Position numbers and translations under genes: made by a program. Positions 53,109 to 64,000 of a stretch of DNA of 64,000 bases are shown here, piece after piece. Source of the DNA: Nitrospirales bacterium (GTDB lineage Bacteria; Nitrospirota; Nitrospiria; Nitrospirales; UBA8639); contig CBDCWC010000003.1 in assembly GCA_965223295.1 (NCBI GenBank), forward strand, positions 1,472,001 through 1,536,000. Reading direction: 5' to 3'. The notes under the pieces were generated by a model. That model did not search any database. It saw only the letters and a program-made list of their open reading frames with translations, and was not told the DNA's origin. Numbering within the stretch: position 1 is the stretch's first letter; every line of letters starts with the position of its first letter.

Positions 53109-53963
53109 TCAGGAATGATGCCAGAGGGACAGGACGGCAGGTTGGGATCGGGGACGGAGCGGTTTGTCGTGTATGTCGTGACCCCGGCAAACGAGGCCGG
53201 TGGATTCCGCGATGCTATGCGCAATCTTGGCTTCAGCAGGGCTGTGATTGATCATGACAAACGTGCCACCTATGACGAGGTTCTTGGCTATTTGTGCAAA
53301 CAGGGCCGATGGATCGAATAAACTAAGCGGAAGACGCCAGGCCAGGAGGGGCTTTGGTGTGACGAATGGGTACCAGGCTGTGATGATGTCTGCCGCCTTG
53401 TCATAGTGGCGGTAATCCTCAACCACATACCTCGTTTGCGGAACATCTTGAATGTGCCCCTGGGCATAGTCAAAGCGGCTGCGTCCATTACAATACACAC
53501 GATAGCCATCGACTTCCGTTCCGACTAATCCTGATGGCTGAAAAAAAGCGTGTAAGGCGGCAGCATACGCAAAATTGGAACTTCCCACATCGCAGACCTG
53601 CTGGTGTTGATAGATCGTCCAATTCAATGTGTTCCGCGCATGATGCAAGACATCAAGATATCCATAATTGAGCAGGCTGGTCTCCGGAGAATATCGCGAT
53701 TCAAAGCGCGTGTCGTACACCCGGTTTAATTCCTCGATGCGATCACATTGCCATGAAGAAAGATCACGATGCATCCCATTGGGTATTTCCCGATAGGTGC
53801 CTCGGGACCATCGTAAGGCCTGTGTAGCCTCGTACCATATGCGATGGTACCCTGACCGCAAACGGTCAGTCATAGTGATGGGAAGAGGTGTCATTGCCTG
53901 AGAATAGGCCAGATAAGATTCGTTTGTTTCCTGTATGTCGCCCTGATTGAATTGCGTGTCCAT
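53109..53963 (-). CDS. putative SAM-dependent methyltransferase-like protein
   Basis: VCDVGSSNF.YA, GTEVD, NLVIGG; start uncertain. Confidence 0.65.
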   Translation of the reverse strand: MDTQFNQGDIQETNESYLAYSQAMTPLPITMTDRLRSGYHRIWYEATQALRWSRGTYREIPNGMHRDLSSWQCDRIEELNRVYDTRFESRYSPETSLLNYGYLDVLHHARNTLNWTIYQHQQVCDVGSSNFAYAAALHAFFQPSGLVGTEVDGYRVYCNGRSRFDYAQGHIQDVPQTRYVVEDYRHYDKAADIITAWYPFVTPKPLLAWRLPLSLFDPSALFAQIAKNLVIGGTFVMINHSPAEAKIAHSIAESTGLVCRGHDIHDKPLRPRSQPAVLSLWHHS

Positions 53964-54150
53964 TGCTGGTTTTTCCCCCTGTTTTATATCGGTTTCCCTC
54001 GATCTACTCTTAATGGTCTCGTTGACCTGTTGAGAAAAGCTGAGTAATCGATTGTCAGTGGGTAGGTGTTGATTTGGCGCCAAAGTATCGTCTTTTGGCG
54101 TGGGATTTTATGACAGAGCCAGAAAGGGTGGGTTGAAGGGAAAAGAAGGG

Positions 54151-54726
54151 CTATTCGAGGGGGATTAAGATTTCCAGTCCACCCATGATGTCATTGAGCT
54201 TAAAGTCACGTTTAGGGCTTTGTTCATGGGCATTATGACAGTTGACACAGGCACGGCTCACTGCTCGATCAGGGAAAATAGCCTGAAAATACTTCCGCTT
54301 GTCTAACTCAATTTCTTGTTCTGAGACTTCTCCGTAAGTCATCACTCTCTCCAGCACTTCACGTTCCTTTTCCGATTCCGGGGCATTTTCCTGGTTGATT
54401 GGCCATAAACTGACTAGCCGGTATCGAAACGGTTTACCGCTCACCTGCAACCCCCGAGAGGATTCTTTGAAAAACTGTGCTGGGAGTGGCAACGTGCGAT
54501 CTTCACGCCAATTTTCTGTGGCATTGACGATTAACATGGCTTCCATACGCTCTACCACGTGTTGGGTGTAAAAGGTGCGATCGGCTTGGAGAACGGCATG
54601 GAGATAATCCGCGACGACACGAATGGGAAAGCCTTGGCCTGGTGAGAGTTTCACGCCGATCCCAATCCCAAGGATGATGGACAGGATAATGGAAACAATA
54701 AGGATGAGAATATGTTGGCGAGCCAT
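54151..54726 (-). CDS. DUF3365 (Tll0287-like) membrane-anchored c-type heme protein
   Basis: N-terminal TM; LPLPAQF, SLWPIN..N.P, ACVNCHN, GGL.I.IP. Confidence 0.88.
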   Translation of the reverse strand: MARQHILILIVSIILSIILGIGIGVKLSPGQGFPIRVVADYLHAVLQADRTFYTQHVVERMEAMLIVNATENWREDRTLPLPAQFFKESSRGLQVSGKPFRYRLVSLWPINQENAPESEKEREVLERVMTYGEVSEQEIELDKRKYFQAIFPDRAVSRACVNCHNAHEQSPKRDFKLNDIMGGLEILIPLE

Positions 54727-55032
54727 CGATTGACAGGTTCCCTTCCTGGGTCACTGCGTGGACCTTGTCGATCCAAAACCTTTCCTTCATGACCAGTGAG
54801 ATCAATATAGCAAGAGACGCTTTGGGAGGCCTACTCTTTTTTGATGGAAAAGCGAATGAGACCTTTGGCAACGAACTCTAAAGAAAACGGGTATGTTGTT
54901 ATATTTTTTAGAAAGTGAAGTGGGAAGGGGTGAAAAAGAATTGGCGGAAACAGCCTCTTTCTGGCAGTCCGCTAAAACATCTTGGAAGGCAATGGAGTCA
55001 TGATGAAGATGATGAAATAGATGTTGTCGAAG

Positions 55033-55089
55033 TTAAAATCTCGAAAGAACGGCCCATGTCACGAGTAAAATAAGTGTAAATGCTTCCAT
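55033..55089 (-). CDS. candidate 18-aa hydrophobic small protein MEAFTLILLVTWAVLSRF
   Basis: AGGAGGA RBS a few nt before the ATG; directly downstream of a consensus sigma54 promoter; absent from the ORF track. Confidence 0.5.
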   Translation of the reverse strand: MEAFTLILLVTWAVLSRF

Positions 55090-55144
55090 TGCAACAATCC
55101 TCCTAATTGTGAGGTCATTTGAGATTTACTAATCCTCGACATAA

Positions 55145-55160
55145 TGCAATGAAAGTGCCA
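55145..55160 (-). promoter_or_regulatory. sigma54 -24/-12 promoter
   Basis: TGGCAC-TTTCA-TTGCA on the minus strand. Confidence 0.85.
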
Positions 55161-55252
55161 AAGTCATTAGTTTTTAAATTAGATATTTTTTCAATGTTAT
55201 CGATTATTTATATGTGTAGTATCCTTTTCCCCAAGGTCTTATTCCCATGAGT

Positions 55253-55290
55253 GTGCGAGTAGCAAAATAACATGTGGTGCGAATCCGCTC
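55253..55290. promoter_or_regulatory. tandem upstream activator-like sites
   Basis: GTGCGAGTAGCAAA (55253) and GTGCGAATCCGCTC (55277), 24 bp apart. Confidence 0.65.
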
Positions 55291-55292
55291 AG

Positions 55293-55489
55293 GAGAATGT
55301 TGAATAATGAAGATATCAAAAGCCATATTTCGCCATGAAGCTCTGGGCCATCAACAACCCCGGGTCTGTTCAAAAAAGTCCGCTCGCCTGCGCGAAGCCG
55401 CTACGGCGAAGGCAGGGAACGCTGCTCCGGCCTTCGTAGCCTACTGAGTTATTTCGGCGGAGTAAGCGGTGGCTATTTTCAACTGACTC
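55293..55489 (-). mobile_element. MITE family B, copy 6 (core deleted, two nested inserts)
   Basis: ends GAGAATGTTGAATAA / TTTTCAACTGACTC; 5-bp TSD CTCAG. Confidence 0.85.
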
Positions 55490-55627
55490 CTCAGGGAAAT
55501 GAGCCAATCAGAAAGAGCAATACAGATGAAAGAAAGAGCTGGATGAGGGACAGAACGAAGGAGAAAAGGGCAGACAATGAATTGGTTATATTATTTTGAA
55601 GGCTTCTCTGAATACCTCTGGTATGTG

Positions 55628-56419
55628 CTAAAAAACTAAGGATTTCTTCACGCCGTCACTCACGACATAAGAGGTCTCAACCCAAATCCAGTCTTTGTTG
55701 GCTGGGCCGTGAATTTGTACACCAGTCAAGACTGCATAGTCTGTTGTTTTGATATCCACGGTGAGTTGAATCATCCGCTCCAGATCTTCTTTGATAATGT
55801 GTTGAGTGACTTTGGTCAGTGTGACTAAGTCTGGAGTTTCTGCAAATCCACTTTTCTCAAACAACCGTTGTTGGAGAAGGCTTTGCTCAAGATCATCCTG
55901 ATCTAGCTCCAGGTTCACGTTTCCTTCTGAAATGTTTTCCTGAATCTTCAGTAAAGCGCCACAGGCGTGGGACATGGCGTGACGTCCTAAGCGGTGGCAA
56001 TTCCCTGGGTTGCCATGTTCATCGATGGCGATGTGGGGGAAGGCAAAATACACATACCGTTCCTTGCCATCAATATTGGGAGCGTGATGATGGGCGGCTT
56101 GAAACCCTGTGACGCCCAAATACAACATTCCAGCCAGACTGGAAAAGTCAAACGCCCCATTCCAGGCATTATGGAGTCTGTTCATGAATGCCGTGGTGAT
56201 TTCATCACGGCAGACGCTCACACAGGCAATGGAATTCTTCTGTTCTATCCCGAAGGGATGTAACCGGAATTGCGAGTAGTCCACGAATGCATCACAGGGA
56301 TAGGTACCAGGAAAGTGCCAATCTAAGGCTGTTCTGAAATCCGAAGGGCCAGGAGAAATTTCAGAAGTTGTTTCATATGAAGAAGAACTGGGTGAGAGCA
56401 GAGTCGGCATGAGCGTCAT
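55628..56419 (-). CDS. LCIB/LCIC-type beta-carbonic anhydrase
   Basis: SVCRDE, LAG...GVTG..AA.HHAP, ERYV...FPHI.I, R.GR...S.ACGAL (Cys/His/Cys Zn ligands). Confidence 0.85.
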   Translation of the reverse strand: MTLMPTLLSPSSSSYETTSEISPGPSDFRTALDWHFPGTYPCDAFVDYSQFRLHPFGIEQKNSIACVSVCRDEITTAFMNRLHNAWNGAFDFSSLAGMLYLGVTGFQAAHHHAPNIDGKERYVYFAFPHIAIDEHGNPGNCHRLGRHAMSHACGALLKIQENISEGNVNLELDQDDLEQSLLQQRLFEKSGFAETPDLVTLTKVTQHIIKEDLERMIQLTVDIKTTDYAVLTGVQIHGPANKDWIWVETSYVVSDGVKKSLVF

Positions 56420-56474
56420 TTCCTTAGTCAGAGCGTTTCAAAAGTGAATCATTGCCTCATAGACTTCTGATTAA

Positions 56475-56490
56475 AGCAAGGACAGTGCCA
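56475..56490 (-). promoter_or_regulatory. sigma54 -24/-12 promoter of the LCIB-type CA gene
   Basis: TGGCAC-TGTCC-TTGCT on the minus strand, about 55 bp upstream of the ATG. Confidence 0.85.
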
Positions 56491-56584
56491 GCGATCTTTT
56501 GCGCAGGCATTCAGAAGAATATCCGGGATTCCTTGTGGTTTTTGGTATTTCCTGTTCCGAGAACTGCTGTATGGAAAGTAGAAG

Positions 56585-56622
56585 GTGCGGGTTCGCACTA
56601 GGTGGACTGTGCGTAAAAAGTT
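56585..56622. promoter_or_regulatory. tandem upstream activator-like sites
   Basis: perfect GTGCG-GGTT-CGCAC (56585) and a half-site GTGCG at 56609, 24 bp apart. Confidence 0.7.
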
Positions 56623-56630
56623 TACCTTCG

Positions 56631-56855
56631 GGGTCTGTTGAAAAAAGCCGCCAGCAGCGTTCTCGCCATTGTTCCGTGCTCACGTACTGCCAGTACGCTC
56701 CGCGCGCAACAATGGCTGCGGCCTTGCTGGACCTGGCTTCGCCGAAGCGGCTTCGCACAGGCGAGCGGACTTTTTTGAACAGCCCCAATGCTGCTGATCG
56801 CGAATAGCTTCCTGACGAAATATGGCTCTTGATCTCTTCATTATTCAACACTCAC
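56631..56855 (+). mobile_element. MITE family B, copy 7
   Basis: GGGTCTGTTGAAAAAA / TTATTCAACACTCAC; 5-bp TSD CTTCG. Confidence 0.9.
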
Positions 56856-56924
56856 CTTCGTGATATGGGTTGTGTAGGCGTCGTCAAGAATGATTTGCAG
56901 CTGCGGAACAGATTTTCACAACCG

Positions 56925-58268
56925 TCAGATCTGTTCGGTGAGGGCTTCCGGGGAAATATGGAGATGCCGAGCGGCTAGCTCTTTGTCCTGATTAGATAAT
57001 CGTAAAACTTCTTGAACAACCATGCGCTGGATTTCAGCTAGGGAGTGTTCTCCAAGTTCAAAGTGAATGCGTACGGTATTGGGTGAGAGTTGTTCGCTAT
57101 GGGATGCTGCCGGTTGAGAGGAAAAATCTAGAGCTGTGAGAACGGTGCCTTGAGAACAGAGGACAGCCCTTTTGGTCAATGCCTCCAATTCTCGAATATT
57201 CCCTGGAAATTGAAAATTCAGCAGAAGCGGAGGAACGGAAGGATCAATATCGAGTTTTTCCCGTCCAATTTCTTCGCCATAGGTTTGAAGAATTTTGAGG
57301 GTCAGAGGAATAATATCTTCCTGGCGTTCTCGAAGCGAAGGAATCGCAATGTGATTGTCTCGAAGGCGAGGAATCAATTTCGAATGAAAGACCTGGTCTT
57401 GCTCCGCTGATTGTGTACTGGCAGTCACAATACGCGCTTGAAGCGAGAGACGGTCATGTCCTCCCATTCGACAATAGGACCCGGATTCAATAGCCATGGC
57501 TAAGGATTCTTGGACGTCCAGAGGAATATGATCAAGCCCATCAATAAATAAGGTGCCGGCATGGGCGCGTTCCAAGGCGCCAGGCATAGCTTGATTGGCA
57601 CCGCTAAAGGCACCTCGTTCATAGCCAAAGAGTTGGGCTTCAAGGAGAAGCGCGTTTTGTTCTGTGCTATTAACAAAAATAAACGGGCCGATGTGCTTGG
57701 GACTGTTGTAATGAAGCACTCGTGCTAAAAATTCTTTTCCTGTTCCCACTTCACCTTGAAGAAACATCAGGGCCGTGTCTCCGTCTGCCAGCTTCTTCAG
57801 TTCTTCAACAACCTTCGCCATCGAGGCACTAGTGGCAATGACATGCTCCCACGCGTAGTGCCGTTGGTTTTCTAACGCGCTGTATTCGACCCGGCGTCGT
57901 AGTTCTAAGAAATTAAGAGCTCGGTCTAATGCAGGATCCACCGTTGAAAAATCAACGGATTTGATCACAAAGTCGTAGGCGCCTAGGCGTATCGCTTCGA
58001 CGGCATCTTCAACGCTGCCATATGCCGTTAACATCACGACCAATGGCTTGGAAGACGACTGCCGTACTTTTCCCAAAGTTTCCATCCCATCCATTTCAGG
58101 CATCTTGAGGTCGAGGAACATCAGGTCAGGAATTTCGTAGGTCAAGGCTTCCAGGAGTGCGTTTCCCGAGTTGAAGCTTCTGACGAGATGTCCCTTCCTG
58201 GCCAATCGTCGACTTAATGCGGAACAGACGTTCTGCTCATCATCGGTCACATAAATTGTTGCGCGCAT
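56925..58268 (-). CDS. NtrC-family receiver-AAA+-HTH regulator with degenerate ATPase motifs
   Basis: TDDE, DLKMP, LTAYG; GEVGTGKE, GAFSGA, TLFIDGL, FPGNIREL; C-terminal AARHLHIS. Confidence 0.9.
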   Translation of the reverse strand: MRATIYVTDDEQNVCSALSRRLARKGHLVRSFNSGNALLEALTYEIPDLMFLDLKMPEMDGMETLGKVRQSSSKPLVVMLTAYGSVEDAVEAIRLGAYDFVIKSVDFSTVDPALDRALNFLELRRRVEYSALENQRHYAWEHVIATSASMAKVVEELKKLADGDTALMFLQGEVGTGKEFLARVLHYNSPKHIGPFIFVNSTEQNALLLEAQLFGYERGAFSGANQAMPGALERAHAGTLFIDGLDHIPLDVQESLAMAIESGSYCRMGGHDRLSLQARIVTASTQSAEQDQVFHSKLIPRLRDNHIAIPSLRERQEDIIPLTLKILQTYGEEIGREKLDIDPSVPPLLLNFQFPGNIRELEALTKRAVLCSQGTVLTALDFSSQPAASHSEQLSPNTVRIHFELGEHSLAEIQRMVVQEVLRLSNQDKELAARHLHISPEALTEQI

Positions 58269-58583
58269 AGGGTTCCTTATTTTGAGAGAGCATTACAAAA
58301 CAATCGAGCCTAAAATTTTTCAGTCCAAAAAATAAAGAGGTCCCCAAAAACCGCCCCGTTTTGAGAGGGCATGAGACGAGTCATAGGACGGTTTGAGGAA
58401 ACCACCCCCGTTTTTGTCGGGGAAACAGGAAAAGTCTGTCTAGACAAGACTGCAAAGTCCATACTCAAACGGTTTTGTAGGTTTTAAGAGAGAATATAAA
58501 GAACGTATTCCGTATTTCAGCAATAAACTAGAAATGTTTCCTGTGTTGTCCTGTTCCCCAATTATCATATAACGCAAACGAGT

Positions 58584-58621
58584 GTGCGATGTTGCACGGG
58601 GCTGCCTGTGTGAAATGGCAC
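58584..58621. promoter_or_regulatory. tandem upstream activator-like sites
   Basis: GTGCGATGTTGCAC (58584) and GTGTGAAATGGCAC (58608), 24 bp apart. Confidence 0.7.
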
Positions 58622-58687
58622 CTTTGAGGAAGGGTTAAACACTCCCATTCACGAAAATCTCATATCCATTTCGTAGTGAGGGAAGCT

Positions 58688-58702
58688 TGGTATTGGTTTT
58701 GC
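58688..58702 (+). promoter_or_regulatory. sigma54 -24/-12 promoter of the porin gene
   Basis: TGGTAT-TGGTT-TTGC (GG-N10-GC). Confidence 0.65.
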
Positions 58703-58756
58703 GTTAAGAAAAGCTGAGACGGTTAACTCTGTGAGAAAACCAACTATTCATCTTAT

Positions 58757-58898
58757 GGGCACCTCTACAAACTGATGATTTTTTCTGAGGGCGGCGTTAG
58801 CGGCGCGCGGAAAACCGCAGTGTATGGGCCAATACATGAGGATTTGAGCGCGCTGCTAACGCCGCCATCGGGAAAAAGGACAGTTTTTAGAGGTGCCC
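58757..58898. mobile_element. MITE family A, copy 2
   Basis: TIR GGGCACCTCTACAAACTG / CAGTTTTTAGAGGTGCCC; TTAT on both flanks; strong internal hairpin. Confidence 0.88.
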
Positions 58899-58920
58899 TT
58901 ATGTACTGAAAGAATGTCTG

Positions 58921-60300
58921 ATGACCTATTATATGATTTTCAGGATGCTTCTTGTTTTGAGTGTTTTTTCGGGAGGAGAAATCGTATTCGGAGCAGGAAA
59001 TCATAGCAAAGAATTCCCCAGTGACTTTGATCGATTGAAGACAATTTTACAGCAACCTAATTCCCTTTCCGCTGCGACCCCTAAATGGTTGGATGTGGGA
59101 GTGGAACATCGCACTCGTTATGGAACGTTTAATCATAGCTTTACCAGAGGGACGGCTGGAAGTAATCAACAAATTCATCAGCGCACAAGAATTCTCATGG
59201 GTATTAAGGATATCTGGGATCCTATGCGGTTTACACTGGAAGCCGCTGATTTTCGCACCCCTGTGGCAGATCGAGGACAAGATCGTAACCCAATTTTTGT
59301 TAATCATCTAGATATTTTTCAGCTCCATATAGATTTGGTGTCTCAGAATTTTTTGGGGTTGGGGCATTCGGGAAAACTTGAGATTGGTCGTATCATCATG
59401 GATTTTGGGAAGGGGCGTTTGGTCGCAGGCCACCGGTTTGGGACGTTTACCCCAACGTTCGATGGTGTGCAATTGACCTTTGGGTCTGATCCCAGCTCTT
59501 TGTGGAATGTTCGGGCCTTTGTCGCGAGACCGGTTCACCGACATTCGGTTAGTCCAGATTGGACCACGCCGATTAGCTACTTTTCAGGTGCGGCGATTTC
59601 AAGCCGGCATGTTCCATGGGCCAATGGAGAGCTGTATCTCTTTCAACTCAATGAAGGAAATAATCTTCAACGGCGCGATCTTTCCACAATGGGATTTCGG
59701 GTCTTTGCTCAGCCAAAGACACAGCAGTGGGATTATGAAATAGAGTCGATCTATCAAGTTGGGAAGGTAGACAAGACAGATCATTTCGCACATCGTCATC
59801 ATGGGGAGGTAGGGTATAGTTTTGGAACGGCGTGGCCGCTTCAGTTTGTGTATCTTTTCGACTATGCATCTGGAGATCCTAATCCAAAAAAGAACTTTGA
59901 TTTTTTGTTTGCCAAACGCCGCGCAGAATATGGGCCAACGGGAATCCTAGGTATTATTTTTCCTTCCAATATTCTTTCCCCTGTGGGTTTCCGTTCAACC
60001 ATCAAGCCCATCCCCACAGTCCAATGGATGATCTCTCATCGCACCTTCTGGCTGGCAGATAGCCGTGGTCCTTTTGTGGGTAGTGGGTTACAGGATTCTA
60101 CAGGTCGAGCAGGCACATTCCTGGGAAATTTGTTCGATACCTCGGTCAATTGGGCTCCGCAAGCAGGCTATTTGCGCCATGCGTCATTCGAAGTGGGATT
60201 TTCTCGTTTTTTCAAAGGCTCCTACTTTAATCGAGTCCCTCAAAGTCCAGGTACTGCGGATGTCAACTATGTGTATACGATGGCGACTCTTTCCTTCTAG
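58921..60300 (+). CDS. alginate-export (AlgE) family outer-membrane porin
   Basis: EHRTRY, GR....G.GRLV, FDG, YASGD, SN, amphipathic strands, terminal Phe. Confidence 0.8.
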   Translation: MTYYMIFRMLLVLSVFSGGEIVFGAGNHSKEFPSDFDRLKTILQQPNSLSAATPKWLDVGVEHRTRYGTFNHSFTRGTAGSNQQIHQRTRILMGIKDIWDPMRFTLEAADFRTPVADRGQDRNPIFVNHLDIFQLHIDLVSQNFLGLGHSGKLEIGRIIMDFGKGRLVAGHRFGTFTPTFDGVQLTFGSDPSSLWNVRAFVARPVHRHSVSPDWTTPISYFSGAAISSRHVPWANGELYLFQLNEGNNLQRRDLSTMGFRVFAQPKTQQWDYEIESIYQVGKVDKTDHFAHRHHGEVGYSFGTAWPLQFVYLFDYASGDPNPKKNFDFLFAKRRAEYGPTGILGIIFPSNILSPVGFRSTIKPIPTVQWMISHRTFWLADSRGPFVGSGLQDSTGRAGTFLGNLFDTSVNWAPQAGYLRHASFEVGFSRFFKGSYFNRVPQSPGTADVNYVYTMATLSF

Positions 60301-60393
60301 CTCCATAACCTGACCTTTCTTTTTTTCAAAGACATTCATGTATCGTGGAGTCAGTGATTCATCATTTAGCACAATTTTTTACTTTTCCTTACC

Positions 60394-60431
60394 GGCTATT
60401 TTCGCACAGTGCATACCGTACGAATTCGCAC
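60394..60431. promoter_or_regulatory. tandem upstream activator-like sites
   Basis: GGCTATTTTCGCAC (60394) and GTACGAATTCGCAC (60418), 24 bp apart. Confidence 0.7.
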
Positions 60432-60557
60432 AGGACACGAGTTTCGTTGAAAAAGGAGAAGGCTTTTCTTCGTTGCTTCGTGTGATGGTTCCGGATTTTA
60501 GTGAGAAATAAGGGGAAAAGACTCTGAATTGCCAATGACCATTTTCCTCATGTTTCA

Positions 60558-60572
60558 TGGCATGTGATTTGC
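60558..60572 (+). promoter_or_regulatory. sigma54 -24/-12 promoter of the SulP gene
   Basis: TGGCAT-GTGAT-TTGC, about 75 bp upstream of ATG 60647. Confidence 0.78.
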
Positions 60573-60646
60573 CCATTATCAAGAAGATTCAGCATTTTTC
60601 ATTCAATTCAAGACAGGCAATAGACTTCATAAAGGACGAATCGGCG

Positions 60647-62446
60647 ATGGATCAGATGATGAAAAGTTTTCGTGAGTATCTCAATACGTTTAACTTCAAA
60701 GAAAATTTTGAGGGATTGACCAGCAATGTGCGTGGGGACATGTTGGCGGGGATCACGGTGGCGATGGTAATCCTCCCGATGGCCTTGGCGTTTGGAGTCG
60801 CTTCAGGTCTTGGAGCTGTCGCGGGGATGTGGTCTGCCGTGGCAGCCGGTCTTGTTGCTGGCCCGTTAAGTGGATCGGCATGGTCGGTTGGCGGACCGAC
60901 GGGGCCAATGACGATTCAAATCCTGACCATTGCGCAGACACATCAAATATCTGATGGTTCTCCTGATTTAGTTTTTATTGCGACGATGATTGCTTTGGCG
61001 GGTTTGATCTTAATTACTCTTGGATTCTTGAAGCTTGGGCAATTTATTAAGTTCACTCCTTATTCTGTTATTTCTGGATTTATGACTGGGCTGGGTTTCC
61101 TGTATATGCTGCTTCAGCTCAATCCGTTTATCGGGTTACCTGGTGCGAAGAGCATTACGGCCGCCATCACAGAATTGCCCTCAACGATTGCACAGGCCTC
61201 CTTGCCGGCATTAGCAATTGGTCTTCTGACCTTAGTGATTGTGGTGATTTGGCCGAAAATTTCACCGGTGACGTGGCTGCCAGGACCGCTAATCGGTTTG
61301 TTTGTTGGGACGGTGGTGGCGACGACGTTGGGGTTAGACATTCCAAAAATTGGAGAGGTGCCAACCGGTTTACCTAAACTCTATTTACCCGATTTTACCG
61401 TTTTTCATGAAGCCTTTGTTCCGGCTGCCGCTCTCGCCGGTCTGTGTATCTTTGATAGTCTGCTCACCTGCCTCATCGTGGATAATATGACCGGAACTCA
61501 TCACAACAGTGACCGGGAACTCGTGGCTCAAGGATCGGCCAACTTATTTTCAGGAATGGTCGGCGGCTTAGGTGGGGCCACTAATACGATGCCTTGTGTG
61601 GTCGGGATTCAGAGTGGAGCAAAGACGCGATTGTGCTCGATCACCATGGGACTGGTTCTCCTTTCATTTATTCTTGGTTTAGGATCTCTGGCGGCTGCAA
61701 TTCCACTTTCTGCTTTGGCGGGGATTCTTCTGAAAGCCGGATATGACATTCTGGATATGCGTGTGCTTCCGGTGGTGCGAAGATTGCCAACCTCTGATCT
61801 CATGGTGTTTGCCCTCGTGGTGCTGATGACGGTTTTTTGGAATTTATTGTCGGCGATGGCGATGGGATTGGCTGTGGCGTTTTTCCGTTTTGTGAAGGAC
61901 CAATCAGATCGTTATAAGGCTGATCTCAATGTACGCAATGAAGACGTGAAGCAGGAAGAGGAAGATCTTATTTTCGCGTTTGGCCGAGATTATGCCCAAC
62001 GGATCAGTCTAAATGGGGCGAATATGGGAGAAATTAGCGGCCGCTTTGAACATCTGGTTCGAGATCGCATTATTATCGTTCGCCCCCATGGTCCCTTATT
62101 TTTCGGGGCCATTGATTGGTTAAATGAAACCGTAGAGGATCTCGAAAACAAAGACGTCCTCATCATTCGTTGTAAGTGGTTGGACGAGCTGGATTTGTCG
62201 GGTGCTTACGCGTTAGGTGACCTCATCGAGGCCGCGAATAGTCGCAATGTTGCAGTATTGACAGCTGGTATGTCGCCTAGGACGAAACAGGTTCTTGAAG
62301 ATTTGCACGAATTGGACAGGCTGGATCCAGATAATATCTGCACACATTTTAATGAGACCCTTGATAAAGCCATGCAAATCGTGGAGAAGAAAGCCCTTCA
62401 GGCCAAATCGAAATCTCAAGCAGAACCAACTCTGTCTTCGGGGTAA
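60647..62446 (+). CDS. SulP/SLC26 anion transporter with STAS domain (BicA-like)
   Basis: GD..AGITVA...LPMALAFG..SG, GPTGPM, DSLLT, DRELVAQG; STAS GPLFFG...DLSG. Confidence 0.92.
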   Translation: MDQMMKSFREYLNTFNFKENFEGLTSNVRGDMLAGITVAMVILPMALAFGVASGLGAVAGMWSAVAAGLVAGPLSGSAWSVGGPTGPMTIQILTIAQTHQISDGSPDLVFIATMIALAGLILITLGFLKLGQFIKFTPYSVISGFMTGLGFLYMLLQLNPFIGLPGAKSITAAITELPSTIAQASLPALAIGLLTLVIVVIWPKISPVTWLPGPLIGLFVGTVVATTLGLDIPKIGEVPTGLPKLYLPDFTVFHEAFVPAAALAGLCIFDSLLTCLIVDNMTGTHHNSDRELVAQGSANLFSGMVGGLGGATNTMPCVVGIQSGAKTRLCSITMGLVLLSFILGLGSLAAAIPLSALAGILLKAGYDILDMRVLPVVRRLPTSDLMVFALVVLMTVFWNLLSAMAMGLAVAFFRFVKDQSDRYKADLNVRNEDVKQEEEDLIFAFGRDYAQRISLNGANMGEISGRFEHLVRDRIIIVRPHGPLFFGAIDWLNETVEDLENKDVLIIRCKWLDELDLSGAYALGDLIEAANSRNVAVLTAGMSPRTKQVLEDLHELDRLDPDNICTHFNETLDKAMQIVEKKALQAKSKSQAEPTLSSG

Positions 62447-62535
62447 GAGTTACCCCGCTTTTTTGGAGAAATATTTTTCACATTGCTTTTTCAATCCCCT
62501 GACTATCAATTTCTGTCTCCAAGGAAAGGGCTCTC

Positions 62536-62720
62536 GTGCCGAAACGTCATAGCATCGCGCATGAACTGGCGCAGAACTTTCTCAATCACATCCCTGTCTG
62601 GCACAAGCTGACCATCCTGGGCTTTCTGTTCGTCGATCCCATCTTGCTGCTTTTGGCTGGCCTATTTGTGACCGGTGGGTGCTTATCTTGGAGTTTATCT
62701 TCACCCCCGCCATGGTCTAC
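62536..62720 (+). pseudogene. nhaB: 5' remnant of Na+/H+ antiporter nhaB, frameshifted
   Basis: NFLNHIPVWHKLTILGFLFVDP; after a frameshift near 62675 continues WVLILEFIFTPAM, matching the NhaB N-terminus, then similarity ends. Confidence 0.75.
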
Positions 62721-62941
62721 TATTCGGAGTATGGAAATGAGTGGGTTGATCTGAAACTCGGGAAAAAACTAGCCATTATATGAAAACTGAGACACTTGGA
62801 AAATAACTCAATTGAAGTCATGGACAAGAACGAAGTCAATATCTTACCTTCACAGTGCTGCAGTTGCTCAAATGATCGGACCTGTATCTTCATGATGTCC
62901 TATCCATTTCTTCAGTGGCATGTGAGGAACTTTTACAGGGT

Positions 62942-64000
62942 ATGAGTAAATTTTTCTTCAATCTTCCTATTGCCAAAAAACTTCTTTTTGTCTCGGCCGT
63001 TCCTATTCTGGCAGTGTTGATATTAAGTCTGGTGACCTATAAAAGTGTGGAGACGTTTTCTCTTGATGAAGATCATCTCAATGAGGTCTATCATATTCAA
63101 AGTGCCTCAGCAGAATATATGCGATTGGTTGTAGATCTTGAAACTGGATTTCGAGGGTATGTGCTTACCGAGCAAGTTCAGTTTTTGCAGCCATATCAAG
63201 CGGCCAAACAACGGGTGTTAGCTTTGGGAAATTCTCTCCGACAAATGGTCGCGTCTGATCCTGTGCAACATAAATTGATTAAATCTGTTCAAAATAATAT
63301 TCATCTGTTGATGACGGACAAGGATCGTCTTATTGAACGGGTAAAAGTGGGACATCCTGAGGAAGCTCGAGAATATATTGAAGCAGAAAAAGGGCGGTTG
63401 CTCATGTTGGCCATTCGTGAAGAGATGGCCAGATTTGATCGTAATGAGATTGAGCAGTTACAACATGCATTAGACAATAGTGCTCAGGATCGTTCAGTGC
63501 TCATGAGCGTTGTGGTAGGTGGGGGTGCGTTGGCCTTGATTTTGATGCTTCTCCCTTTACAACTCATAGCACGATCAATTACGGGACCCTTAACGACCTT
63601 GGTGAAGACGGTAGAAAATTTTTCCGGTGGCCGGATGCCGTCAGTTCCTATTCTGAACAGAAGCGATGAAATTGGAGAGTTGACTCGCGTGATGAATACG
63701 ATGGGCACTCAGATTGATCAGCATATCCAACAAATCCAGAAGTCAGAACAGGAGCTGCGTATCCTGAATCAGGACATTACCTCGTCCGAGGCAAAGTATC
63801 GCGGTATTGTTGATCATGCACCAATTGGGATATTTACCGTCGAGCAGGGTCGTGTGATTTTTAGTAATCGCCAGAATTGGATACTGGCTGGACGAGACCC
63901 CGACCATGTTTTAGACCCGGAACACATATGGGATGCCGTACATCCTGATGATCGGGGAGATGTTCAACGTGTCTTTCATGATGCGCGAAAAGAAGGAGAG
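62942..64000 (+). CDS. membrane sensor (CHASE3-HAMP-PAS), probably a histidine kinase; runs off the window
   Basis: manual translation: MSKFFFNLPIAKKL, TM, DLETGFRGYVLT..FLQPY (CHASE3), TM, SITGPL...DEIGEL (HAMP), SEAKYR..VDHAP...VHPDDR (PAS). Confidence 0.88.
   Translation, partial: MSKFFFNLPIAKKLLFVSAVPILAVLILSLVTYKSVETFSLDEDHLNEVYHIQSASAEYMRLVVDLETGFRGYVLTEQVQFLQPYQAAKQRVLALGNSLRQMVASDPVQHKLIKSVQNNIHLLMTDKDRLIERVKVGHPEEAREYIEAEKGRLLMLAIREEMARFDRNEIEQLQHALDNSAQDRSVLMSVVVGGGALALILMLLPLQLIARSITGPLTTLVKTVENFSGGRMPSVPILNRSDEIGELTRVMNTMGTQIDQHIQQIQKSEQELRILNQDITSSEAKYRGIVDHAPIGIFTVEQGRVIFSNRQNWILAGRDPDHVLDPEHIWDAVHPDDRGDVQRVFHDARKEGE

Follow-up and report, generated by a model that had tools for sequence, protein, structure and literature searches.

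The 64-kb window examined here belongs to a Nitrospirales genome of 3.78 Mb that is rated 100% complete, and the analysis concerned its last part, from 54.1 to 64.0 kb. Eight coding features were delimited there from Pfam matches and open reading frames (ORFs; Table 1). Four lie on the minus strand, namely the genes for a Tll0287-like haem protein, a very short hydrophobic peptide, a homolog of the LCIB/theta-type carbonic anhydrases (CA) and a response regulator called RR54-A. The rest lie on the plus strand and comprise genes for an outer-membrane porin and a BicA-like SulP transporter, a remnant of the antiporter gene nhaB and the first part of a sensor kinase gene. A preliminary description of this DNA had suggested that these genes form a sigma-54-controlled regulon for the acquisition of inorganic carbon. 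Its proposed Pfam search gave matches of window proteins to all the families in question, i.e., LCIB_C_CA, Sulfate_transp with STAS, and Alginate_exp. No known riboswitch or leader was matched by Rfam (window 54000-64000, E <= 1). An ORF next to the cluster, orf324 (53109-54083), gave a methyltransferase-like lead only and was left outside the regulon.

Table 1 Features of the locus and of the two related units elsewhere in the genome. Positions are those of the window; the prefix C3 marks contig coordinates
Feature	Position	Strand	Characteristics
Tll0287-like (DUF3365) protein, 191 amino acids	54151-54726	-	Pfam PF11845 E 6e-20; last gene of the peptide unit
Hydrophobic peptide of 18 amino acids, MEAFTLILLVTWAVLSRF	55033-55089	-	First ORF after P_pep; ribosome-binding site AGGAGG
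P_pep, -24/-12 element TGGCACTTTCATTGC	55146-55160	-	Exact consensus match
Paired upstream sites of P_pep	55253-55290	-	GAGCGGATTCGCAC at 55277-55290; weaker site at 55253-55266
Dispersed repeat copy (MITE/REP-like)	55291-55500		Repeat search and blastn
LCIB/theta-type CA homolog, 263 amino acids	55628-56419	-	Pfam PF18599 LCIB_C_CA E 1e-55
P_CA, -24/-12 element TGGCACTGTCCTTGC	56476-56490	-	Exact match; CA start codon 57 nucleotides downstream
Paired upstream sites of P_CA	56585-56619	-	GTGCGAACCCGCAC (transcribed strand) at 56585-56598; TACGCACAG at 56606-56619
Second dispersed repeat copy, inverted orientation	56621-56857		Repeat search and blastn
RR54-A, NtrC-family response regulator, 447 amino acids	56925-58268	-	REC, Sigma54_activat and AAA_lid; short Fis-like helix-turn-helix (HTH)
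Paired upstream sites of P_por	58584-58621	+	GTGCGATGTTGCAC and GTGTGAAATGGCAC, 24 nucleotides start to start
P_por, -24/-12 element TGGTATTGGTTTTGC	58688-58702	+	2 mismatches
Palindromic dispersed repeat in porin 5' leader	58754-58901		89 blastn matches in the genome
AlgE/Alginate_exp outer-membrane beta-barrel, 459 amino acids	58921-60300	+	Pfam PF13372 E 9e-41
Paired upstream sites of P_SulP	60396-60431	+	TTTCGCACAG at 60396-60409; GTACGAATTCGCAC at 60418-60431
P_SulP, -24/-12 element TGGCATGTGATTTGC	60558-60572	+	1 mismatch; overlaps the first ATG of the long ORF
BicA-like SulP with STAS	60647-62446 (ORF from 60557)	+	Pfam Sulfate_transp PF00916 E 8e-68; STAS PF01740 E 2e-11
nhaB remnant, ~75 N-terminal codons with frameshift	62506-62726	+	tblastn with the intact NhaB of the genome
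CHASE3-HAMP-PAS-HisKA-HATPase sensor kinase	62915->64000	+	Pfam; 648 amino acids in full, 861 nucleotides beyond the window end
DabA unit	C3:1545459		9.6 kb past the window end; pair GAGCGAAATCGCAC/GAGCGAAAACGCTC, 145 nucleotides, then promoter TGGAATATAATTTGC
SulP584 unit	C3:1081116		450 kb away; site pair, then promoter TGGAATGCCCTTTGC

The clustering of the genes is not peculiar to this genome. For comparison, 80 loci encoding LCIB relatives were taken from species-representative genomes. An arrangement in which porin, SulP, nhaB (where present) and kinase genes diverge from those for RR54-A, LCIB, the peptide and the Tll0287-like protein was kept in 18 of these, representing as many species genomes labelled Nitrospirales, Nitrospiraceae, Nitrospirota or Nitrospira. 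The linkage of CA, porin, SulP, nhaB remnant, sensor and regulator noted before is thus borne out by Pfam and tblastn identities and by its conservation in 18 Nitrospirales species genomes, which also answers the synteny question raised at the time. In a sample of 41 genomes of the order, an LCIB domain was present in 10 and DabA in 35.

The rpoN gene for sigma-54 is present in the genome (PF04552, 198 bits, C3:1901322-1901804), and putative sigma-54-dependent promoters were sought with the consensus TGGCAC-N5-TTGC, in which GG and GC are 10 nucleotides apart. Such elements, with zero to two mismatches and on the same strand as the downstream gene, precede the peptide, CA, porin and SulP units. 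Exact matches in the 64-kb window are limited to P_pep and P_CA, and the whole genome has only 10. When two mismatches were allowed, 66 matches were found in the window against 60 +/- 8 expected from shuffles, and at this level the motif alone is uninformative because it is no commoner than in shuffled sequence. Position is more telling: an element was found at the equivalent place in relatives for P_CA (16 of 18 loci), P_pep (all 16 loci that hold the Tll0287 gene), P_por (13 of 15, in the form TGGTA[TC]T-N-GTTTTGC) and P_SulP (15 of 15). The two loci among the 18 in which P_CA was not found are L041 and L042, the former being from a genome in which the LCIB gene carries an in-frame TGA.

Alignment of the upstream regions revealed one conserved block in each, consisting of a palindrome of 14 bp (GTGCGA-N2-TCGCAC type) and, 24 nucleotides away, another site that is weaker. 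The palindrome lies at about -131 from P_pep in 16 of 17 sequences, at about -105 from P_CA in 17 of 17 (with at most two mismatches) and at -129 to -142 from P_SulP in 15 of 16. The copy GTGCGAACCCGCAC upstream of the CA gene is the sole exact GTGCG-N4-CGCAC of the genome. In all 14 porin-regulator intergenic regions of relatives, the pair GTGCGATGNTGCAC and GTGTGAANTNGCAC is present, usually some 240 nucleotides upstream of P_por and 104 nucleotides upstream in the window. The preliminary description of four units, each with a -24/-12 motif and the same paired upstream sites, could therefore be confirmed with exact positions and across species.

At the level of the whole genome, the palindrome occurs at 52 sites when one mismatch is allowed, five of them within one 19-kb stretch. 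The combination of a palindrome with any sigma-54-like site scoring at least 8 was found 7 times, with some 4-5 cases estimated by chance from the site counts, and was abandoned as a genome-wide predictor because it is unspecific at loose thresholds. It was replaced by a search for two degenerate palindromes 23-25 nucleotides apart, which gave 6 pairs in the genome and 0-2 in five simulated Markov-1 genomes. As the loose coupling of palindrome and promoter is near chance, the case rests on clustering, on the 24-nucleotide pairing and on conservation. Three further matches of the pair search, at C3:115794, C3:402338 and C3:1517277 (in the window, at ~45277), were treated as chance, those inspected showing no convincing promoter.

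Two of the 6 pairs lie outside the gene cluster of the window, in front of further carbon-uptake units (Table 1). The first unit encodes, in this order, a peptide of 23 amino acids, a SulP of 545 amino acids (SulP545), DabA, MnhE, MnhG, MbhD/E, MnhB, MnhC and three PF00361 proteins, with a dispersed repeat between the peptide and the SulP. DabA was identified with PF10070 (E 2e-260, 866 bits), and the three PF00361 genes follow it on the same strand, as in the co-location of subunits known for DAB/DAC systems. The site pair and the 23-residue peptide were present in all six genomes in which this unit was examined, and in four of them a -24/-12 element scoring at least 8 was found at the usual distance of ~145 nucleotides downstream. 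Five of these six genomes lack an ortholog of the window LCIB; in one, G012, the only trace was a partial PF18599 match of 27.5 bits. The second unit encodes a peptide of 61 amino acids, the start of which resembles the 23-residue peptide, a SulP of 584 amino acids (SulP584) and a GAF membrane protein. Of 10 relative genomes examined, 6 have kept the site pair in front of their SulP584 ortholog. For SulP584, the best structure (6KI1, E 5e-86) and the best NCBIfam family are both BicA. With SulP545, the generic sulP model scored best, sulP and DauA both ranking above BicA, and no PDB sequence was matched at E <= 1e-20. The addition of a DabA-Mrp unit and of a second BicA-like SulP strengthens the interpretation of the regulon in terms of carbon.

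The kinase gene continues beyond the window (L110:915-2861) and is followed directly by the gene of a second, canonical NtrC-type regulator, RR54-B (L110:2819-4252). RR54-A and RR54-B are paralogs with very similar receiver domains and with HTH regions that are similar, not identical. RR54-B has the sequences LFLDEIGDL, FREDLFFRL and GAFTGA, a PF00158 match of 231 bits and a Fis-type HTH_8 (E 2e-10), as would be expected of an active enhancer-binding AAA+ protein. This is not the case for RR54-A. Judged by alignment to Aquifex NtrC1 (4L4U), its Walker B motif in the window reads DG instead of DE, FREDL with the arginine finger is replaced by FHSKL, sensor I reads ASTQS and the loop GAFSGA. A second alignment, of 15 RR54-A sequences (the window's and 14 orthologs) with three of RR54-B, showed that Walker B is DE in nine, DG in five (among them the clade of the window) and DA in one. 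The arginine finger is missing from all 15, the first arginine of FREDL being a histidine in 14 and absent in one, and so is the sensor-I asparagine. A GAF[ST]GA loop is kept in 14 of the 15, and the protein still has the receiver domain and the HTH. From these replacements, RR54-A appears to be a candidate pseudo-ATPase regulator.

In five out of five genomes that have the operator before DabA but lack the LCIB/porin cluster, adjacent orthologs of the kinase (74-87%) and of RR54-B (82-93%) were found, in three of them 6-8 kb from the DabA operon. Orthologs of RR54-A were not detected in these five genomes, the best match being the RR54-B ortholog with 43-46%. Because of this co-occurrence with the operator, the kinase and RR54-B are likely to constitute the core switch and RR54-A an accessory. 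The CHASE3 two-component control proposed before is supported as to the kinase, which accompanies the operator; the regulator inside the window is ATPase-degenerate, and the likely activator is RR54-B, encoded just beyond the window end. One could also imagine two circuits, in which RR54-A controls the four units in the window and the role of RR54-B is confined to those of DabA and SulP584, with HTH paralogy as the source of the common operator. RR54-A was indeed not found apart from the LCIB/porin cluster, the half-sites of the palindromes vary a little from unit to unit (GTGCG, GAGCG and GTACG), and the HTH regions of the two proteins are not the same. However, activation by RR54-A unaided seems improbable, as the arginine finger is missing throughout and the clade of the window also lacks the Walker B glutamate, and the close paralogy of the receiver domains goes together with a single kinase. 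We consider a division into two circuits distinctly unlikely.

Two more blocks are conserved between RR54-A and the porin operator (window 58300-58470; 14 intergenic regions), one resembling GCAAAGTCCATACTCA and a G/C-rich one around GGAGGATCTCCAC. They could represent the promoter or leader of RR54-A or another binding site. In Nitrospira sp. isolate DJ (L042:5645-8046), the porin-regulator intergenic region measures 2.4 kb instead of 0.6-0.9 kb and contains a long G+C-rich insert, probably an insertion element, upstream of an intact operator pair.

The match of the CA homolog to PF18599 (189 bits, cut-off 25) spans model positions 3-222 of 223, and no signal peptide was found in the protein. 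In the PDB, it matches Chlamydomonas LCIB (5K5W CrLCIB, E 3e-38) and LCIC (5B5X CrLCIC, E 8e-37), to which it can be aligned over the motifs CRDE, FPHIA and ACGAL, the first of these in the same form as in the algal proteins. The putative zinc ligands in these motifs are C70, H129 and C153, a Cys-His-Cys set; alignment A1 shows no variation at H129 and C153, and has C70 in every sequence that covers its position. A role is attributed to the residue beside the first cysteine, which is Arg in the window homolog and Ser in the active diatom enzyme. The ligands are 59 and 24 residues apart, compared with 56 and 24 in 5B5Y, a comparison by spacing and not by residue-by-residue alignment; the ligands of 5B5Y are C61, H117 and C141 according to the part of the survey that was available (PMC13147460). 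Diatom LCIB homologs have been reported to be active (PMC9614477). That the window protein belongs to the LCIB class is supported here by family, structures and zinc positions. The earlier statement that LCIB proteins are established CAs needs to be softened: for the Chlamydomonas type, the nearest relative, the accessible part of the literature gives CA activity as unconfirmed (PMC10096703).

In two relatives, G018 and G020, the syntenic LCIB gene (L023:9471-10187 and L024:9669-10376) contains in-frame TGA codons in an otherwise well-conserved sequence. One of these is common to both genomes, and one stands in place of a cysteine codon. Selenocysteine was considered and set aside; P_CA was not found in L041, which belongs to one of these two genomes, and the neighbouring nhaB is decayed as well. 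In another relative, G003 (L025/L047, contig C33 at ~54-58 kb), LCIB and a Tll0287-like gene are doubled head to head, with truncated LCIB copies; this perfect-looking inverted duplication must be an artefact of the assembly or else a genuine palindromic rearrangement. LCIB genes also occur in other surroundings. In another Nitrospiraceae genome (L097:8416-18533; also L086 and L087), the gene is part of a same-strand string with genes for GntR, CBS and a Na_sulph_symp-type carrier. The string also holds MnhE/F/G/B/C/D and two more PF00361 proteins, LCIB being located where DabA sits in the present genome. On a Nitrospinota contig (L075:3438-13728), LCIB lies 2.6 kb from DabA-Mrp. These contexts suggest that LCIB may work together with Mrp-like membrane complexes.

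The SulP of the window combines an SLC26 transmembrane domain with a C-terminal STAS domain, as in BicA. Its first ATG, at 60557, lies under P_SulP, for which reason translation probably starts at ATG 60647, giving a protein of 599 amino acids. The best structure is the transmembrane domain of BicA (6KI1, E 3e-75; next structure 6e-33), and the best NCBIfam family is BicA (NF050096), albeit with 338.5 bits, below the equivalog cut-off of 880. Residues D300, T304 and T344 align with Asp258, Thr262 and Thr302, which coordinate Na+ in BicA (10.1101/2022.06.08.495363), assuming an offset of one residue between chain and paper numbering, and may be taken as the putative Na+ ligands of the window protein. 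Going by these features, it is BicA-like without being a certified equivalog. The assignment to SulP/BicA rather than to sulfate or dicarboxylate carriers holds with that qualification.

SulP family members carry many anions, and the genes might accordingly serve the import of sulfate, a C4-dicarboxylate or another organic acid through the SulPs and the porin, with the CA as a supplier of counter-ions or a mere neighbour. The three SulPs all score below the BicA cut-off, and the DauA and generic sulP models match them as well, outscoring BicA in the case of SulP545. On the other hand, with two of the three SulPs BicA comes first among structures as well as families, leading SLC26Dg by more than 40 orders of magnitude, and its Na+ ligands are kept in the window protein. 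Moreover, the SulPs are linked to an LCIB CA, DabA and Na+/H+ antiporters, and no gene for sulfate assimilation or dicarboxylate catabolism was seen in the units. In our opinion, it is very unlikely that the regulon serves another anion.

Downstream of the SulP gene, the nhaB remnant is 72% identical over 57 amino acids, followed by 22 frameshifted residues, to the N-terminus of the intact NhaB (E 1e-21) that the genome has kept 26 kb further on; its match to Pfam NhaB (E 1e-4) is under the cut-off. An intact nhaB is present between the SulP and kinase genes in eight orthologous loci, in agreement with the remnant having been recognized there before. The G018 and G020 loci have retained C-terminal pieces of the gene and the window an N-terminal piece, which suggests independent decay.

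The porin carries a signal-like hydrophobic segment at its N-terminus, and no PDB sequence was matched at E <= 1. Orthologs with at least 73% identity were found in 10 of 24 same-genus relatives; three have stop codons and one more is fragmented with stops. The neighbours of the porin gene are the regulator and the SulP, and no alginate genes are among them: the fold places the protein in Alginate_exp, but its context is not that of an alginate exporter. Its Pfam match and the conserved linkage of its orthologs uphold the outer-membrane pore in the cluster. Another porin of the Alginate_exp family, with 38% identity to that of the window, is encoded at L184:10990-12495 (C3:1082990-1084495), 2.5 kb from the SulP584 unit, and a paralog of this type occurs in most of the relatives searched.

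The small peptide conforms to ME[AG]FTLILL[VI]TWA[VI]L[SA]RF in 17 of 17 sequences. Eleven loci encode a second peptide, of 24 amino acids, which the window lacks. The Tll0287-like protein has an N-terminal membrane anchor and a haem-c motif, CVNCH, at residue 160, and matched no PDB sequence at E <= 1. Its gene follows LCIB in 16 of the 18 orthologous loci.

The metabolic background fits a probable reductive tricarboxylic acid (rTCA) cycle autotroph, as had been supposed: ATP-citrate lyase and several beta-CA genes are present, and no RuBisCO was found. There is no PF00016 match in the genome, rated as complete as stated above; no search was aimed at shell proteins. A CO2-concentrating mechanism (CCM) of the cyanobacterial type, with RuBisCO in carboxysomes as the sink for HCO3-, is not indicated for this genome. 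Since known carbon-uptake parts share one operator type in an rTCA autotroph, the locus can probably be understood as the accessory half of an inducible, carboxysome-free regulon for the acquisition of dissolved inorganic carbon (DIC) in a Nitrospira-type organism.

In such a regulon, the kinase with its periplasmic CHASE3 domain would phosphorylate RR54-B, which would bind the paired 14-bp palindromes, 24 bp apart, some 100-250 bp upstream of the -24/-12 promoters and open these promoters. RR54-A would probably not activate alone and would act as a modulator, through mixed oligomers or by competition at the paired sites. The products would include an AlgE-family pore in the outer membrane and a BicA-like Na+/HCO3- symporter; in the ancestral state this was followed by NhaB, a Na+/H+ antiporter decayed here. 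A cytoplasmic LCIB/theta-type CA would interconvert imported HCO3- and CO2 for carboxylases using the one or the other. The small membrane peptide and the periplasmic haem-c Tll0287-like protein would form another unit. Outside the window, the peptide-SulP-DabA-Mrp unit would provide energised CO2 hydration and Na+ extrusion, and the last unit a peptide and a further BicA-like SulP. The set of pore, HCO3- importer and CA proposed in the preliminary description came through the tests at the genomic level in every part, and the DabA-Mrp and SulP584 units were added to it.

Several points weigh against this interpretation. The genes, the motifs, their conservation and their co-occurrence were observed; the substrates of the transporters, the signal (low DIC and/or high pH, and the CHASE3 ligand) and the regulator that binds are what we infer. 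The closest structures of the CA homolog, CrLCIB and CrLCIC, are proteins without confirmed CA activity in the accessible part of PMC10096703. All three SulPs fall short of the BicA cut-off of 880, with 409.4 bits for SulP584 and 105.1 for SulP545 next to the value given above for the window protein. At loose thresholds, a palindrome with a sigma-54-like site is common and weak evidence alone. The cluster decays in some relatives (in-frame TGA in LCIB in two genomes, stop codons in the porin gene in three) and there would thus be habitats in which it is not needed. Known DIC uptake offers no role for the peptides or for the Tll0287-like haem protein, and in public sequencing runs no RNA run with this stretch was found.

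The last objection concerns the antiporters, as Na+/H+ antiporters and a CA fit alkaline pH homeostasis equally well. The regulon could sense high external pH or Na+, with the antiporters and the CA acidifying the cytoplasm and HCO3- being taken up as acid equivalents. NhaB and a full Mrp set belong to the ancestral or extended regulon, and the nhaB copy at this locus has decayed while another one, elsewhere in the genome, is intact. In the available part of their paper, Daebeler et al. treat the BicA-Mrp-NhaB locus of Ca. Nitrospira alkalitolerans in the context of pH and ion homeostasis (10.1101/2020.03.05.977850). However, DabA represents a family of CO2-hydrating DIC pumps, by its Pfam name and the part of PMC13147460 available, and pH control alone would hardly account for two BicA-like SulPs, a third SulP that is more divergent and a porin of the anion type. 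CO2 is scarce at high pH, so that the two explanations overlap and may share one signal; by sequence they are inseparable. Regulation by pH or Na+ in place of carbon seems to us rather unlikely, and we continue with DIC acquisition.

The nearest functional precedent for a DIC regulon of this kind would be that of CcmR in Synechococcus sp. PCC 7002, which, in the accessible part of the report, comprises bicA, Mrp/NapA antiporters, the porB porin and ndhD3/cupA and is induced at limiting inorganic carbon (PMC5062996). As far as that part goes, both would have one regulator, repeated operator sites and a BicA-type SulP together with antiporters, a porin and energised CO2 hydration; the logic would be the same, with another regulator class and another carbon-fixation pathway. 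Positive sigma-54/NtrC-type control with a periplasmic CHASE3 domain is proposed here, while CcmR is a cytoplasmic LysR-type repressor that senses metabolites. No RuBisCO was found in the present genome, hence no carboxysome pathway, DabA-Mrp takes the place of NDH-1/CupA, and the present set further includes a haem protein, small peptides and an LCIB-type CA.

In Nitrospira itself, BicA-NhaB and BicA-Mrp-NuoL/M-NhaB loci have been described in Ca. N. alkalitolerans and N. marina, together with a Na+-cycling model of HCO3- uptake (10.1101/2020.03.05.977850; PMC8115632, both available in part). These share with the present loci a BicA-like SulP beside NhaB or Mrp. In the available parts, the accounts do not include an LCIB/theta CA, the porin, the peptides, sigma-54 promoters, the operator or a dedicated kinase and regulators, some of which may be listed in supplementary tables. 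The literature search as a whole yielded no paper on the LCIB member, the porin, the peptides, the operator or the sigma-54/CHASE3 control; supplementary tables were outside this search and may list the genes. The earlier statement that the regulon had not been described consequently applies to the control circuit, which was not found in print, and not to the BicA-NhaB/Mrp linkage and the Na+-cycling model, which are published.

The resemblance to DAB/DAC (DabA-DabB) lies in DabA being in an apparent operon with PF00361 subunits, in line with the co-location described in the accessible part of PMC13147460. Here, a complete Mrp-like set (MnhE, G, MbhD/E, B, C and three PF00361 proteins) follows DabA, a SulP and a 23-residue peptide precede it, and the whole unit stands behind a sigma-54 promoter. 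The LCIB homolog shares its Pfam domain and the CRDE, FPHIA and ACGAL motifs with Chlamydomonas LCIB/LCIC, the genes of which are induced by low CO2; here it is bacterial, encoded by a single gene and cytoplasmic, with neither pyrenoid nor RuBisCO. NtrBC, ZraSR and AtoSC resemble the present system in the REC/AAA+/Fis-type HTH organization of RR54-B and in palindromic site pairs at enhancer distance. It differs from them in the CHASE3 kinase and in an ATPase-degenerate RR54-A encoded divergently from the porin, and no NCBIfam equivalog cut-off was reached.

Surveys, in the parts available, report that rTCA autotrophs have theta CAs, SulP and DAC, describe the arsenal of the Nitrospirota as mysterious with its expression open, and ask whether rTCA autotrophs express carbon-uptake genes as autotrophs with the Calvin-Benson-Bassham cycle do (PMC10880623; PMC13147460). 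Nitrospira are the most widespread nitrite oxidisers, and their large carbon-uptake arsenal is called puzzling in the same parts (PMC10880623; PMC13147460). This question becomes accessible to experiment through a defined operator together with four to six promoters, two regulators and one sensor kinase. The single-gene bacterial LCIB homolog provides material for settling whether the protein class is a carbonic anhydrase, the locus offers a naturally occurring enhancer-binding paralog with a degenerate ATPase site, and the porin, the peptides and DabA-Mrp are candidate parts for the engineering of bicarbonate uptake. A more far-reaching combination would be a true inducible CCM free of RuBisCO and carboxysomes, in which CHASE3 senses bicarbonate, CO2 or pH, a motor is paired with a pseudo-ATPase tuner, and bacterial LCIB proteins are the soluble catalytic heads of Mrp/DAB-like machines and not free CAs. 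Such heads would explain the inactivity of algal LCIB on its own, although the combination as a whole is speculative and unlikely to hold in all its parts.

The two dispersed repeat copies that flank the CA gene gave 209 and 339 blastn matches in the genome. The copy at 55291-55500 and positions 56732-56857 form a 126-nucleotide inverted repeat around the gene, with 85% complementarity. A mobile cassette was considered and rejected because the arms are a repeat with hundreds of genomic matches and the CA gene occupies the same place in relatives. The repeats are found in 5' leaders or in the space separating an operator from the adjacent gene, and none interrupts an operator or promoter; another such element lies at L110:12130-12330.

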